Positions 1 through 57,625 of a DNA stretch of 64,000 nucleotides are shown piece by piece. Source of the DNA: an uncultured Fibrobacter sp. (GTDB lineage: Bacteria; Fibrobacterota; Fibrobacteria; Fibrobacterales; Fibrobacteraceae). Each line of letters opens with the position of its first letter. The first letter of the stretch is position 1. Made by a program: the position numbers and the translations under genes. Below the pieces are notes generated by a model, which saw nothing but the letters and a program-made list of their open reading frames with translations, had not been told where the DNA came from and searched no databases. The DNA is taken from contig OMSO01000014.1 in the NCBI GenBank assembly GCA_900313675.1, positions 12,475 through 76,474 of the forward strand, in the 5' to 3' direction.

Positions 1-117
1 GGCCTCCCCCTGCTTGCAGCCTTGGCGATTAGGCAGATGCCGACAGTGTCATTGTCCGACGGCCTCGCCAAGTCTTCCTGCACCCCCTCTCCTAGGGGCT
101 TCGCCCCTAAAACCCCT
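1..117 (-). repeat. Composite palindromic element (outer 'GGGGGAGGC' family), truncated at window edge
   Basis: Reverse complement reads GGGG..AGGGGCGAAGCCCCTAGGAGAGGGGGTGCAGGAAGAC[stem]GGCTGCAAGCAGGGGGAGGCC, matching elements at 36367-36716 and 56987-57163. Confidence 0.7.
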
Positions 118-36366: not shown

Positions 36367-36716
36367 GCGGGGGTGTTAGGGGGTGTCCCCCTAGGAGACC
36401 TTTGGACACTTGGCCTTTTATACGACTCTTAGTGCTTTAGCACTTAGTGGAGTTATGCCCTTTGGGTAAGGCCTTAGTGTACATGGCCACCTTTAGACAC
36501 TTGGCCTTTTATACGACTCTTAGTGCTTTAGCACTTAGTGGAGTTATGCCCTTTGGGTAAGGCCTTAGTGTACATGGCCACCTTTAGGTGGTGGGGTAGC
36601 GACCCTTCGGCCCCTCGACAAGCTCGGGGACCTTACTCCGGTTGGCGAGCCTGTCGAGCCACAGGGACCTTTGTCACAGAGACTGACGATGGAAGCCAGG
36701 GGGAGGCTTCCCCCCT
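36367..36716 (+). repeat. Composite palindromic element carrying a 2x91-bp tandem hairpin module
   Basis: Outer ends match 56987-57163; 36405-36495 is repeated at 36496-36586; inner CTCGACAAGCTCGGG / GAGCCTGTCGAG module. Confidence 0.85.
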
Positions 36717-52327: not shown

Positions 52328-55300
52328 CTATTCCAGCAGTCCAAGCAACTGCTTGATGTCTCGTTCGTCCATAGACGACGGTATGAACATGCGTTCTTCG
52401 GGTGAAACGTAGATCATCTTCCGTTCCGAAGACGGTCGGAAACTTCTGTCTCTCAGCTCTACCGCAGGGTTCTTGAGGGAATACAGGAACTTACCCGTCT
52501 GGATAAACTTCTGGCCCTTGATGCCCTGCTTGATGGCATCCATAATCTGGGGCACGAGTTTCTGGTTCGGCCAGGGTTCCTTGTGGAGTTCGAAAAGCCT
52601 CTGCTGCAGCAGTTCTTCGTGAATGGGGGACTCGTGGTCCACGTAGAACTTGAGCTGCGTGATGATGGATGCCGCCGAAAGTTTGGCGATGGGCCTGTCG
52701 TGAGGTGTTCCTTCGATTTTCGGGTGCAGCACCGTATAGGGAATCACGCTCAGGTTTTCGGCACTGATGGCATCGACGCTTTCGGATTCTTCTTCGGAGG
52801 CGTCCTTGGGCGGGGGAGCCACGCTCTGCTCGATGGCGATGGTAGTGACCATGTGGCTCACTTCGTCGCTGTTGGCCATGTACCAGAAGGGGGTCCAAAG
52901 GTTCAGTACCTTCCAGCCGATTTGACGGAGCAGCGTGTGGCGAATGTAGATTCGGTCTTCGATGGATTCCCTGAAACGTTCCGTGGTGCAGTCGTCTTCG
53001 ACCATGGCCAGGAACCGCTTGGAATTGTTGGCGTCAACCACCACAGGGCCAACAGAAATGCCGCACTGGCAGAAATAGGGCTCCACCTGGATGTTTTCGT
53101 CTTGCAGGGCCTTTAGGGCCTGGGCGTAGAGTGCCGATTCCTTGGGCTTCTCGTCGGTAATGTTCAGGGTAAGCACCTTCTGCAGGTACAGAATCCATTC
53201 CCAGAATAGGTCCGGTTTTTCTTTGGGCTTCTGGGCCATGTCGCTTTCGGAAAGGAACACTTGGAGTTCGCTCTTGGCAAGCGTTGTACAGACAGAAAGG
53301 GAATTGTTGATGGCTTTCTTTTCGGTGGTTTCGTATTCGCCACACACGAGAATCGTATCTCGCAGGCGGTTGACCGCCCTTTCGGGAGTCTTTACGTAAA
53401 AACTGATGGAGGGGTTTGTAGGCTGGAAAAACCTTGCCGCCGGAGAATCCTTGGGCGTAAGGCTGTTGATGGCCGACTCGATTTCCATGCAGGTGGACTG
53501 GTGAAGAGCGATTATGCCGAGAGTGCGTCCCGGTTGCCTTTCGGCATGGTGAATAGCGGCCTTCGCGATTTCCAGGACCTTGTCGGAGACGACTTTCAGG
53601 GTCTGGTTCTTTACCTTTTCGCGGCTGGGTTGCGGCAGTTGCCGAATGTCGCCGCCGTAGATTTTGCAGTTTGCAAAATCTATTATGGAGGAATGGGCGT
53701 AGGTGGTGGAGAACCACAGTTCCCTGGTGGGAATCCCCTGCCTTAAGCTCATGGTGAGAATAGATTCCTGGAACGCCTGGGTATGGGGCGTCTTGTCTTC
53801 GGGGTAACCGTCCAGCGGCAGGTGCTTCAGGAGAGGCGCCTTGGAATCGCCCACCAGCACCGTCTTTTGGCCCTTGAAAATGGCGGGAAGCGCCTCGCAG
53901 ACCGAAATGCAGTCCGCGTCCAGAATGACTACGGTCTGAAACTTTTGTGATGGGGCCAGCTGGAAACTCTGCTCCAGCGGGATAAAGGCGAAAAGGCCCG
54001 GATTGTCCTTGACGGTGTTTTGCACCAACCTGAAATTTGCGTTGCAGAACTGGTCCAGTCGGGAGCGGTAATCCCTGGTCTTTTGAGCGCGGGCTTTGGG
54101 CAAAAGGGAGAACAGGTCGGGACAATCCTTGCCGACCTGCTGGATTTGCGTTCCTGCCCAGAAATGGGCGAAGGCCTGGGCGATATTCTGGCTCACGTTG
54201 TCGGCGTCTTTCAGGTAGTCGACTAGTTCCTTTGCTCCGAATTTTTCGATGGACTGCAAAAGCGACGTGGTGCGCACGTGAATTTCCAGATTGCCCCAGT
54301 TGGCGTTCCACAGCTGGATTTCGTCCAGCCACTTTTCGATGCACAGGCTCTCGAGAGGAGTTTCCAGAGAAAGTCCCTTCGTAATCTTGCGGGTGGATTC
54401 CTGGAGTTCCTTGACGACCTTCGCGTAGTCCTTCATCTGGGGGAGGGCATCCTTGAACAGCTGCCACTGCTCCAGAATCTGGAGCAGCAGGTCCAGCCGC
54501 GGGTCGTTCTTGTGGGTCTCCCTAAAGTCGTAGATGTAGGTAATCTTCTTGTTCAGCTCGAACCAGTTGGAGCGTTCGTAGAGCCAGTCGCGGCCCAGCA
54601 GGTGGTTCCCGAGAACGGAGGTGTCCTTGTAGGCCCGCTTGTTTTCTTGCAGTTCAATCAGGGTGTCGATCAGGTCCAGCAGCTGGTTGTCCGAGGAGAC
54701 GGACTTCGGGTCTTTCAGGACTTTCAAAAGCTTTTTCTTGGAACTGCGGTAGCGGTCCGAAAGGCCCTTGAGGGTGGCCTTCAGGCTGTCTGCGAATTCT
54801 TCGCGGACAGAAAGGATGTTTTCATCTACGGCGTTGTCGGTGTAGATCTCCGAAGTCTGCCTACGGTAGCGGACCCACTTGTCGCCTGCTTCGGGAAGCG
54901 CCTTCAGGGAATCCTGGTAGTCTTCCCAGCTGTTGGAACGCAGTTCCCAGTCTTCAAAGACAGGAGTGTTCCTGTTGAAATTCTGGAGAATCAGGTCGAT
55001 GATGTCCGAAAGTCCGGAAAGGTAGATACCCGTGGGGAACAGTCCCGTCTTTTCGACCAGAGCGATAAGGGGTTTCAGTTCGTTGGCCTTGCTTGAGGCA
55101 AGGGCAAGTTCCTTGGCAATCGCTTCTTGTTCTTCGACGGAGAGGCTCGGAACCCGCACGTCCTTGAAGGCGTTCCTGGCCTCCTTGCCCTTCTTTTCGA
55201 AGTAAAGGTAAAGAATCTCGTCTAGGTCCGCCTTGAGTTCGCAGTAGTCCCTGTACGGAATGTTCGCAATTTTCTGGAACAGGGTGTCGGATGCTTTAAC

Positions 55301-56437
55301 CTTGACGGCCGGGTTCTGGACGAATTCTGTCAGCAGGTCCGAAAGGGGGGCGTCGGAGGGCTGGATGTTCTTGTTTATGGCATCGTAATACCGCACAAAA
55401 GAATCGCGGGTCTTCTGGAGTTCCGGCAGAAGGGCGTCCCTTTCGGGGCCTTCGAAATTGCGGAACTGCGGGAACAGCCTATCCCTAAACTTTTGGGCGG
55501 TAGAAGCCCTGCGGTAAACCACCAGGGTGCTTTTCTTTTCGGCGATGGAATCGGCCACCAGGTTCGCCGTGGCACGATCCCAGTCTGTACCTGGCAGGGC
55601 CTGGATGGCGTAGGCGTTGTTTCCGGCATCTTTTGCGTCTTCTGTGACCTTGGTGGTGTGGGAATCCGTGATGTACAGAGGATAGTGGTCCAGCGGCGAG
55701 TACAGCTTGTCAAATGTTTCTCCGTCGAACTTGGAATCCTTGGTCTGGAATCCATCGGCGGTAAAGAGGGCTTGAACGGTGGAGGCGGCGCTGGCGTTGG
55801 ATTCGTCCAGCCCCAGTTCCATGCATTTCTTGAGGCCCAGCTTGACGGAATCGAAGAAGGCGAGGCAGATACCGTGTCGTGTAAATTTCCAGTTTTTCTT
55901 TGCCGCCACCGCTTTTTCGAAGAGGGAAAAATACAGCAAGATGCTGAACTGGCCGTTCAGGGTGGCATCTTCTATGGTGGGGAGCGAAAGCTCCGTTTTC
56001 AACCGTTCCCGCAGGACGATGTTTTCGAGAGGATGCTTCGAAGAAAGGGCTACCGTCTGGGTCTGGAGATTCACATCCAGGGGCACCAGCAGGCTTGGGG
56101 AAAGGGCGTTCCCTTCCCACTTCAAGAATCCCAGCAGCAGGTACAGGTCGGTGGTACCGAAGTCCTCTAGTTTTTCCTTGAGGGCTTGTAGGATATGTTC
56201 TTTCACCTCTAGCTTTTGCTGGGGTGTGAAACTCTCTGACTTGGGGAGGAATGAGTCCAGTGGCAGGGGGCCTCCGGCCTGTTTCCACTTTTCAAAGAAC
56301 AGGTCGCCGGTTTCAAGCATCAGGGGAGTCTGGTACAGGCCCTTGGTGTTGAAGTTCAAGAGTGAATCTTTGGAATCGAAAAGAGCCGATTCCTGGCGAA
56401 TCTTTGAAAGGGTGGCGGACAAGGCTGCGTTGGACAT
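52328..56437 (-). CDS. DUF4011 + SF1 helicase-like + Vsr/REase-like + DUF3320-like protein with degenerate catalytic motifs
   Basis: LLNF, LYLLLGFLKW..PSLLVP; ALPGTDWD (Walker A position), ILDAD, VGDSK; VEDD..GWKVLNLW; ESPIHEELL. Confidence 0.75.
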   Translation of the reverse strand: MSNAALSATLSKIRQESALFDSKDSLLNFNTKGLYQTPLMLETGDLFFEKWKQAGGPLPLDSFLPKSESFTPQQKLEVKEHILQALKEKLEDFGTTDLYLLLGFLKWEGNALSPSLLVPLDVNLQTQTVALSSKHPLENIVLRERLKTELSLPTIEDATLNGQFSILLYFSLFEKAVAAKKNWKFTRHGICLAFFDSVKLGLKKCMELGLDESNASAASTVQALFTADGFQTKDSKFDGETFDKLYSPLDHYPLYITDSHTTKVTEDAKDAGNNAYAIQALPGTDWDRATANLVADSIAEKKSTLVVYRRASTAQKFRDRLFPQFRNFEGPERDALLPELQKTRDSFVRYYDAINKNIQPSDAPLSDLLTEFVQNPAVKVKASDTLFQKIANIPYRDYCELKADLDEILYLYFEKKGKEARNAFKDVRVPSLSVEEQEAIAKELALASSKANELKPLIALVEKTGLFPTGIYLSGLSDIIDLILQNFNRNTPVFEDWELRSNSWEDYQDSLKALPEAGDKWVRYRRQTSEIYTDNAVDENILSVREEFADSLKATLKGLSDRYRSSKKKLLKVLKDPKSVSSDNQLLDLIDTLIELQENKRAYKDTSVLGNHLLGRDWLYERSNWFELNKKITYIYDFRETHKNDPRLDLLLQILEQWQLFKDALPQMKDYAKVVKELQESTRKITKGLSLETPLESLCIEKWLDEIQLWNANWGNLEIHVRTTSLLQSIEKFGAKELVDYLKDADNVSQNIAQAFAHFWAGTQIQQVGKDCPDLFSLLPKARAQKTRDYRSRLDQFCNANFRLVQNTVKDNPGLFAFIPLEQSFQLAPSQKFQTVVILDADCISVCEALPAIFKGQKTVLVGDSKAPLLKHLPLDGYPEDKTPHTQAFQESILTMSLRQGIPTRELWFSTTYAHSSIIDFANCKIYGGDIRQLPQPSREKVKNQTLKVVSDKVLEIAKAAIHHAERQPGRTLGIIALHQSTCMEIESAINSLTPKDSPAARFFQPTNPSISFYVKTPERAVNRLRDTILVCGEYETTEKKAINNSLSVCTTLAKSELQVFLSESDMAQKPKEKPDLFWEWILYLQKVLTLNITDEKPKESALYAQALKALQDENIQVEPYFCQCGISVGPVVVDANNSKRFLAMVEDDCTTERFRESIEDRIYIRHTLLRQIGWKVLNLWTPFWYMANSDEVSHMVTTIAIEQSVAPPPKDASEEESESVDAISAENLSVIPYTVLHPKIEGTPHDRPIAKLSAASIITQLKFYVDHESPIHEELLQQRLFELHKEPWPNQKLVPQIMDAIKQGIKGQKFIQTGKFLYSLKNPAVELRDRSFRPSSERKMIYVSPEERMFIPSSMDERDIKQLLGLLE

Positions 56438-56465
56438 GCCCTGAATATACATTATTTAGAAGTAG

Positions 56466-56495
56466 CGAGTTATGAGTTACGAGTTACGAGTTGTC
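56466..56495. repeat. 7-bp GAGTTAN tandem repeat
   Basis: GAGTTAT GAGTTAC GAGTTAC GAGTTGT. Confidence 0.7.
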
Positions 56496-56522: not shown

Positions 56523-57530
56523 TTACAAATTTTGGCAGACGATGTTCAGGGCGTTGTCTAGGTTGGCGGGCGCTTGCGTGGAGGCAAGTCCTGCCTTGAA
56601 AAGGACCCTGCCCAGGAGTTCTTGGGGGGTGACACCTGCTTCCCGGTCTTGCCGGATACTGTGGGCTTTTTCCCGCTTGGAAAGTTTTTTGCCCGCCGGG
56701 TCCACGATGAGGGGGTGGTGCAGGTACTTGGGCGGTTCGGTCCTGCCCATCAGTTCCATCAGGGCGATTTGCCTTGCGGTGGAATTCCGTATGTCTTCGC
56801 CCCGGATAACGTGGGAGATTCCCTCTTCGATGTCGTCGACGCAGACGGCGAACTGGTAGGTCCATTGGCCAATTCTATCCCGGATAGGGAAGTCCCCGCA
56901 TTGGAGTTTCGGATTTTCGGCAAAGTCCCCTAGGCGTAGGTCGTGCCAGTTAATTACTTTGTCTGGAATCTTGATTCGGAGGGAGTGGGGGGCGTTGCGG
57001 GGGGAACCCCCGCTGGAGGGGGTAGCGGAAGACGCATGGATATCCCCGCCAGGTTGATGGGAGATCCCCGTGATTCTATCGCTTCGCTCCAGAATGACAG
57101 CGGGGATGACAAGTAAGTGGCGGGGATGGTATGTGGCTGCAGCGAGGGGGAGGCTTCCCCCCTTGCATTTTCCTTGGTATATGATTTCGCCAAATTCGTT
57201 CTTTGGATTTTGTTCTTCCAGTTCTTTGCGGCTGCAGTAGCAGGGGTAGACCAGGTTTTGTGCTTCAAGGTTCTTGAGGGCTTTTTCAAATCGGTCGAAA
57301 TGTTCGCTCTGGAGGCTTTCGCTTTGCCACTTGAAACCTAGCCATTGCAGGTCTTCGCGGATGGCGGCGATGTGCTCGGGCCTTGACCTTTTCTGGTCGT
57401 GGTCCTCGATGCGCAGGTGCACCGACAGGTCCCATTTTTTTGCGGCGGCCCACACGTACAGGGCCGAAAGCAGGTGGCCTTCGTGAAGGTAGCCGGTGGG
57501 GCTGGGCGCAAATCTGGTTTTTCCGGGCAT
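56523..57530 (-). CDS. gluQ: Glutamyl-Q tRNA(Asp) synthetase-like protein with an in-frame repeat insertion
   Basis: RFAPSPTGYLHEGH, RIEDHD, CYCSRK..Y.GKC, HVIRGED, KLSKR; no anticodon-binding domain. Confidence 0.85.
   Translation of the reverse strand: MPGKTRFAPSPTGYLHEGHLLSALYVWAAAKKWDLSVHLRIEDHDQKRSRPEHIAAIREDLQWLGFKWQSESLQSEHFDRFEKALKNLEAQNLVYPCYCSRKELEEQNPKNEFGEIIYQGKCKGGSLPLAAATYHPRHLLVIPAVILERSDRITGISHQPGGDIHASSATPSSGGSPRNAPHSLRIKIPDKVINWHDLRLGDFAENPKLQCGDFPIRDRIGQWTYQFAVCVDDIEEGISHVIRGEDIRNSTARQIALMELMGRTEPPKYLHHPLIVDPAGKKLSKREKAHSIRQDREAGVTPQELLGRVLFKAGLASTQAPANLDNALNIVCQNL
56987..57163 (+). repeat. Four-level nested palindromic element inside gluQ
   Basis: Outer GGGG..GGAAGAC / GGCTGCAGCGAGGGGGAGGCTTCCCCC; ATCCCCGCCA/TGGCGGGGAT; GAGATCCCCG/CGGGGATGACA; TGATTCTATCGCTTCGCTCCAGAATGACAG. 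Confidence 0.85.
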
Positions 57531-57546
57531 AGGGGGAAATATAGTT

Positions 57547-57625
57547 ATGAATTCGGATTTCGGAATTATGAATTGTTTCTGAATATAATTCTGAACTCTG
57601 AAATCAGGACTCCGAATTGAATTGA
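57547..57625. repeat. 7-bp GAATT/CTGAA arrays in divergent promoter region
   Basis: GAATTCG GATTTCG GAATTAT GAATTGT ... CTGAACT CTGAAAT CAGGACT CCGAATT. Confidence 0.55.

Follow-up and report, generated by a model that had tools for sequence, protein, structure and literature searches.

A composite of hairpin repeats that are dispersed through the genome probably entered a tolerant, predicted-disordered loop of a gluQ-like gene in this uncultured rumen Fibrobacter, and was probably exchanged there module by module through short-patch recombination, with Ssn-type nucleases as the probable candidate cutters. The gene lies within the window, by which we mean the whole 64,000-nucleotide stretch of DNA that was analysed, and belongs to the genome referred to here as G000. 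It reads on the minus strand from 57530 to 56523 as a stop-free ORF of 335 aa, with HEGH at residue 16, CxC at residues 97–99, YQGKC at 118–122 and KLSKR at 282. The features are as follows.

56523..57530, minus strand: gluQ-like gene, a paralogue of the GluRS catalytic domain only, 335 aa
57165..57242, minus strand: zinc motif CxC-x18-YxxxC (C97, C99, Y118, C122), immediately ahead of the insert
56988..57162, minus strand: whole composite repeat, 175 bases, read in frame as most of the 62-residue loop
57135..57162, minus strand: level 1 (outer element), left hairpin and left core arm
57118..57128, minus strand: level 2 left arm, a decayed CGTC-type hairpin arm
57101..57111, minus strand: level 3 left arm, a REP of the CGTC-1/NTS/SRM type
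57071..57100, minus strand: level 4, the innermost module, in place of the 6-nt loop of the 54-aa allele (net +24 nt)
57060..57070, minus strand: level 3 right arm
57038..57051, minus strand: level 2 right arm
56988..57035, minus strand: level 1 right core arm, C-run and terminal hairpin
1..117, plus strand: outer-element copy between genes, carrying other cargo, its left end starting 6 nt before the window
36367..36716, minus strand: a further outer-element copy between genes; its large cargo is unrelated and contains a tandem duplication

Translation confirms what a preliminary description of this DNA had noticed, an in-frame peptide of about 60 residues in gluQ with HEGH and KLSKR intact and no stop. 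The inner stems it located also reappear on refolding, at 57118–57128/57038–57051 and 57101–57111/57060–57070, with the innermost module at 57071–57100. Levels 2 to 4 pair as one nested stem, but the outer level of the proposed four-level palindrome is no simple palindrome and has a left and a right hairpin with decayed arms between them. In folding stability the insert surpasses nearly all of its shuffles, both as DNA (z −3.7, 0 of 200 as good) and as RNA (z −3.0, 2 of 200). The same outer element had been placed at 1–117 and 36367–36716; the outer architecture is indeed common to these copies, although they carry another right-end subtype and unrelated cargo. Several smaller features accompany them. 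An ~85-base direct duplication occupies 36420–36590 in the cargo of the second copy, with a similar unit in a copy on contig C25, and the sequence at 120–300 is a further repeat that follows several outer-element copies genome-wide (also on C14 and C77). Heptamer tandem repeats stand on either side of the gluQ-like gene (57545–57620 and 56465–56490), and the same heptamer classes are translated within gluQ, TruB and MnmE loops elsewhere. The neighbouring minus-strand ORF at 52328–56452 (1374 aa) gives partial matches to the ProA and Hhe (DUF4011) anti-phage models, far under their cut-offs.

The protein has the zinc motif CxCx11-28Yx3C and the HIGH- and KMSKS-like motifs of GluQ-RS, and the zinc motif of gluQ-like proteins is invariant across 39 aligned sequences. 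That definition of the motif comes from work on Glu-Q-RS (YadB), in the available text of which 15 of 61 Glu-Q-RS lack the motif (PMC4381286). The best model for the window protein is TIGR03838, the NCBIfam GluQ-RS equivalog, at 238 bits against a cut-off of 276.7; four short-loop orthologues likewise fall under this cut-off (239–258 bits), and the match to the window protein is in two pieces, broken around the loop. As expected of a GluQ-RS, it comprises a catalytic domain without an anticodon-binding domain, and the genome holds a separate full-length GluRS gene, gltX (490 aa, contig C27). Because the score is under the equivalog cut-off, and gltX and tgt are found elsewhere in G000, we label the gene gluQ-like; judged by its sequence, it is likely a tRNA-modifying enzyme of the GluQ-RS (YadB) type. 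Close relatives of the protein carry the source name Fibrobacter sp. An AF2 model has a confident core that matches the GluRS and YadB structures 1nzj and 4a91 (target-normalised TM 0.76–0.78), and residues 123–177 have a pLDDT below 50. The insert-bearing loop is thus predicted to be disordered; it follows the last zinc ligand and would lie at the surface. Like E. coli Glu-Q-RS (YadB), the protein has the catalytic domain only, an intact motif and a matching fold; it differs in its 62-residue loop after the last ligand and, in one allele, in a last cysteine that is encoded by a repeat. This loop measures 12–14 residues in short-loop Fibrobacter genes and 15 in E. coli GluRS, and short-loop relatives are 285 aa long against 335 aa here. 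The flanks of the gene are under purifying selection, with pN of 0.008–0.022 against pS of 0.11–0.19 in nine comparisons (pN/pS ~0.06–0.14).

All modules of the insert are dispersed repeats of G000, and they nest inside one another genome-wide. The outer left end has 20 matches in this genome and its reversed control has none. For 37 of 71 left-end matches a right end follows within 520 nt, and the interiors thus bounded span 20–125 bases and use all three frames (14, 8 and 15). The element has two G/C-run hairpins around variable cargo, instead of a CGTC/GTAG tag with a single hairpin, and we found no named repeat family for it. Level 3 is a TGTC-tagged hairpin with 114 matches in G000 to a loose pattern, and the arms of level 2 are a decayed pair of this type. 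The published degenerate SRM pattern has 86 matches in G000 against 15–28 in five Markov controls; it matches level 3 of the 54-aa allele and no longer fits the window copy, because the loop there is enlarged. Level 4, with 36 matches of its type in G000, carries the TGTC/CGTC tag, but an internal loop interrupts its stem, which in this class would measure 8–9 bp, and the SRM pattern does not match it. Thirteen of its 22 strict copies occupy the loop of a hairpin of the level-3 type, with identical junctions and in three stem variants, and 11 of these 13, intergenic ones included, alter the loop by a multiple of 3. The innermost step swaps out 5–7 target bases without a duplication and the ends are separate hairpins, so that the insert does not have the form of a MITE. 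An empty and a filled version of one composite are found on C77 and C7, and composites similar to that in gluQ stand on C51, C66 and C44 and within an RlmD-type gene on C74. This last gene (C74:15115-16509, L190), an RlmD-type RNA methyltransferase, contains a complete outer-plus-inner composite, antisense and in frame. HrpB (C54:47348-49540), CobA-HemD (C48:28103-29740) and RsmB (C47:47792-49123) of the same genome have two to four separate repeat-derived peptides each, and in CobA-HemD a level-4-in-level-3 nest is read in the same frame as in gluQ.

The gluQ loop forms an allele series. It is 29 residues long in five close genomes, 54 in four and 62 in G000; with the lengths 12, 25, 33, 50 and 55 added from proteins, the close clade spans 12/25/29/33/50/54/55/62 aa. 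The 29-residue loop is the outer element with a short core, and the 54-residue loop has the other core subtype together with levels 2 and 3. Matches to the outer left end number 19–31 in G089 and the ten genomes whose gluQ contains it, and no more than 13 in any of the other 140. In the 54-to-62 step a 6-base hairpin loop was replaced in place by a 30-base module, and the remaining levels likely arrived as a ready-made composite. The difference between the 29- and 54-aa alleles is best read as a replaced interior, through conversion from another copy of the repeat. A quick tree of the flanks, which are mosaic, does not separate these two alleles, and a metagenome pattern scan returned four loci, two of them gluQ with the 29- and the 54-aa allele. 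In a more distant relative (P0015, P0167 and P0168), the 12-residue loop equals the right hairpin of the element alone, which would make this allele either an ancestral look-alike target or a deletion remnant.

These alleles bear on a history put forward in the preliminary description, in which repeated insertion, taken here as four successive in-place steps, built a new, selected GluQ peptide. The 54-to-62 step did occur in place, the four 54-aa genome alleles differ by synonymous changes alone (no more than 2 in any of the three pairs scored), and one allele has a repeat-encoded motif cysteine. Against this, the 29- and 54-aa alleles differ in interior subtype, intermediates with level 2 alone were not found among the alleles, and similar composites are present elsewhere in the genome, which leaves the 54-to-62 change as the only step shown to be in place. 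The 29-aa alleles, moreover, change amino acids at about the flank rate, and in other species the loop holds unrelated peptides of 12–82 aa. With the loop predicted to be disordered and its sequence interchangeable across species, the idea of a functional peptide birth loses ground; nor is selection to keep the frame needed for the 54-to-62 step, as 11 of the 13 nested level-4 copies already change length by a multiple of 3, and gluQ is no special site, as at least 33 genes of G000 carry repeat-derived peptides. We consider successive insertion under selection improbable. What stands of that proposal is a repeat-derived, in-frame insert, similar to the Rickettsia palindromic elements (RPEs), in an intact gluQ-like gene with flanks under purifying selection, and the comparison it called for, of loop length across Fibrobacter, gives changes in whole codons throughout (99 of 99 in frame). 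A role of the insert as nucleic acid, either as an mRNA hairpin that tunes expression or as a segment that is spliced out, would explain conservation at the nucleotide level. It agrees with the stable fold and with loop pS below flank pS in 18 of 19 equal-length pairs scored; yet splicing would make the constant frame needless, both orientations occur in other genes, and in the RNA-library run X15 the 29-aa insert is in place on a 4.8-kb contig, possibly from DNA, so we hold such a role to be very improbable. Contigs of a further RNA run, X16, do not cover the loop. It is hardly credible, finally, that the insert is an assembly artefact or the gene a decaying pseudogene. The 62-aa allele is found in only 1 of 99 genomes, and in run X1, possibly the source sample, a separate assembly has no single contig that spans the whole insert. 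A few members of the protein cluster are also damaged (among 15 listed, one has a frameshift immediately behind the insert and two, although on long contigs, are without their N-terminus), and some alleles may therefore be broken. Nevertheless, zero-mismatch X1 contigs cover both junctions of the innermost module, the 54- and 29-aa alleles recur in nine other genomes and several runs, the end of protein P0166 runs into the beginning of a similar innermost module, and pN/pS is low.

The same loop is open to repeats across the genus. The gluQ-like gene was matched in 98 of 100 genus genomes, the two misses being 71% and 74% complete, and all 99 loops (95 extracted by script and four read off full translations) are in frame, 12–82 residues long and filled with several unrelated repeat types. 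Loops of at least 19 residues make up 58 of the 99, and 51 of these match one of nine repeat patterns, which were written after the loops had been seen and also match 4 of 37 short loops. LigA and TruB each have one open loop with varied repeats in all of the 30 best-scoring loci, out of 96 genomes in either case. G000 itself has at least 33 genes with repeat-derived peptides, 32 of them named by Pfam: 10 encode RNA-modifying enzymes, two RNA helicases, two ribosome GTPases, four repair enzymes or ligases and three tetrapyrrole enzymes, besides others. These ORFs were chosen by repeat sequence from two crude scans, with repeat matches at the protein level dropped; the gene calls for this genome are crude (1525 genes, with gluQ itself missed), so that gene counts are lower bounds, and insert status was compared with orthologues for gluQ, LigA and TruB. 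In other genes the inserts are read in both orientations and in several frames.

Loaded loops are also shared between species. Two species pairs (G093/G029 and G094/G111) share 95 and 116 identical loop nucleotides at 20% and 16% flank divergence, with identity confined to the insert; the longest identical flank run is 72 nt among 4314 pairs at ≥15% divergence. LigA inserts, similarly, are common to genomes whose nearest neighbours hold different inserts. The sequences thus support a lateral transfer of loaded loops. A more far-reaching explanation is a homing-like drive, in which nuclease cuts by the repeats keep transfer tracts within the insert, loaded loops spread preferentially between species, and the repeats gather in conserved RNA- and DNA-maintenance genes in the manner of uptake sequences. 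Insert-limited identity and the distribution of LigA inserts would fit this, as would the 10 of 33 loaded genes for RNA-modifying enzymes and the four for DNA repair or ligase, and the shortening of transfer tracts that has been proposed for the Neisseria nuclease SsnA in the part of that report available (PMC11893778). However, the gluQ pairs were picked for sharing and are just two among 1555 with two long loops at ≥15% divergence, SsnA reduces integration, and the share of RNA-modifying enzymes is a raw count without a denominator. The flanks are patchy too, with identical ligA runs of up to 161 nt at 9–12% divergence, and for this reason ordinary recombination may account for the shared inserts. 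We regard the homing-like drive as unlikely.

Returning to module-wise exchange in a tolerant loop as the preferred reading, hairpins on single-stranded DNA, formed in replication or uptake, would be cut beside GTCA motifs, and the cut would be repaired by copying another copy of the repeat via the shared stems, so that loops and whole interiors are swapped. Out-of-frame products would be purged and in-frame products would be near neutral, because the loop appears to follow the last zinc ligand at the surface. Loaded loops would also cross species by recombination in the conserved flanks, and repeat sequence might now and then assume a function of the host; the allele that encodes the fourth zinc-motif cysteine would be an example. 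Ssn-type proteins are likely, if still candidate, cutters of the TGTC modules. Two small GIY-YIG genes in G000 start directly behind level-3-type hairpins; the 120-aa protein matches Pfam GIY-YIG only and has the hairpin directly upstream, the arrangement of a small single-domain Ssn protein beside an SRM. Across the genus, 74 of 101 genomes have homologues, and comEC and dprA are present. In a crude test of the flanks of 29 GIY-YIG loci, a GTC motif was found 5′ in 12 and 3′ in 4, with 11 unparsed. Among these small GIY-YIG genes (L158-L171) the C terminus of the protein often includes the translated downstream hairpin, and both copies in G000 end at contig ends, as expected of multicopy genes. 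In the available portion of the published work, SsnA cuts single-stranded DNA just 5′ of NTS/SRM hairpins, tolerates enlarged loops and modulates transformation; it is reported there as a nuclease that lowers integration, with mobilisation a hypothesis only, and NTS repeats are rarely intragenic in Neisseria (2%) (PMC11893778). The SsnA cut position has no obvious match to the 9–14-nt spacers of the REP-in-REP nests. One enzyme cannot explain all inserts, because the outer element and the heptamers fall outside the SRM pattern and the outer element has yielded no cognate enzyme; a search of seven stretches between nearby outer-element copies gave no such gene. G000, at 81% completeness, yielded neither a Y1/RAYT transposase (PF01797) nor a DUF559 gene. 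Genes of the 23S_rRNA_IVP family were considered as cognates of the insert modules and rejected, since they are flanked by heptamer repeats and not by the modules of the insert. Two such four-helix-bundle genes (PF05635; L156:1445-1485 and L157, on C49 and C30 of G000) have inverted heptamer arrays on both sides, which makes 23S_rRNA_IVP a candidate cognate of the heptamers.

In one common allele, the cysteine at the fourth, likely zinc-binding position comes from the repeat. This YQGGC allele accounts for 5 of 62 listed loops; the host KCK is missing and the repeat encodes a cysteine at the YxxxC position. The YQGGC protein P0130 is found on 30 contigs, and in run X7 the allele is seen as DNA, with 12 nt left out and a codon change; P0128 has this codon change without the deletion. 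The left-end variant of this allele also occurs in intergenic copies of the outer element, and since motif-less Glu-Q-RS exist as well, selection for the repeat-encoded cysteine is something that we only infer.

Three known systems resemble what we describe. REPs tagged CGTC/GTAG lie in frame in uvrA/uvrB, DNA ligase, RNA helicases, tRNA synthetases and TruB (Di Nocera et al. 2013, PMC3733652), where clusters encode up to 82 aa and some REPs sit inside other palindromes; as far as the available text goes, Fibrobacter shares with them TGTC/CGTC-tagged hairpins, in-frame copies and types of target. The main text of that paper has no Fibrobacter, and four of its supplements no gluQ or gltX. Set beside its available account, Fibrobacter differs in fixed loops that hold several unrelated repeat classes, in some 100 species, in nesting up to four deep and in an allele series. 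RPEs (Ogata et al.), in the portions available, are single units of ~150 bp with a conserved peptide, in frame in housekeeping genes, TruB being one target (PMC10969869, PMC3733652). As with RPEs, the insert is fused in frame into a coding gene and absent from orthologues; compared with the same portions, the Fibrobacter repeats, which belong to a free-living genus of the gut, are modular composites of 20–180 bp and are translated in either orientation and in several frames. The insert therefore works, on its sequence features, like an RPE without being a member, having neither the ~150-bp unit nor the conserved peptide. For the Ssn/NTS-SRM system (Chenal et al. 2025, PMC11893778), the available text agrees with ours in that level 3 fits the SRM pattern and small single-domain GIY-YIG genes adjoin such hairpins, and F. 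succinogenes S85 appears in its supplementary data 4, where some columns give it an ssnA homologue and one figure, 34, is taken here as its number of SRMs. It differs in that the published repeats are rarely intragenic and are not shown there to be mobilised, the outer element and the heptamers are no SRMs, and the Fibrobacter proteins are putative nucleases.

Among the publications listed by our search, none deals with in-gene palindromic repeats in Fibrobacter. Nested SDR repeats in cyanobacteria and an RPE in Rickettsia gltX may be further parallels; the publications listed hold nothing relevant on nested SDR1 repeats, and the search gave none on an RPE in gltX. In-frame REPs and RPEs are thus known; what Fibrobacter adds is scale, an allele series, loop replacement as a nesting step, sharing across species and a repeat-encoded motif cysteine.

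The finding touches two old questions, how short repeats without genes of their own spread and whether repeat-derived peptides gain function. In Fibrobacter, the same loops of conserved enzymes form natural allele series across about 100 species, the candidate nuclease family has an established in-vitro assay, and the repeat-encoded cysteine at a zinc-motif position is a concrete case that allows a direct test of whether a repeat has taken over a host role. For annotation, repeat-loaded loops split HMM matches and inflate protein lengths in this genus. Taken to its furthest, and as a speculation with a modest chance of being right, Fibrobacter may run a genus-wide cassette system: Ssn-type nucleases would cut by the hairpins, modules would be swapped between loops and species, and the system would load fixed loops of RNA- and DNA-maintenance enzymes in the manner of a homing element without a gene, so that residues born from repeats could take conserved roles, here that of the fourth zinc ligand of GluQ.
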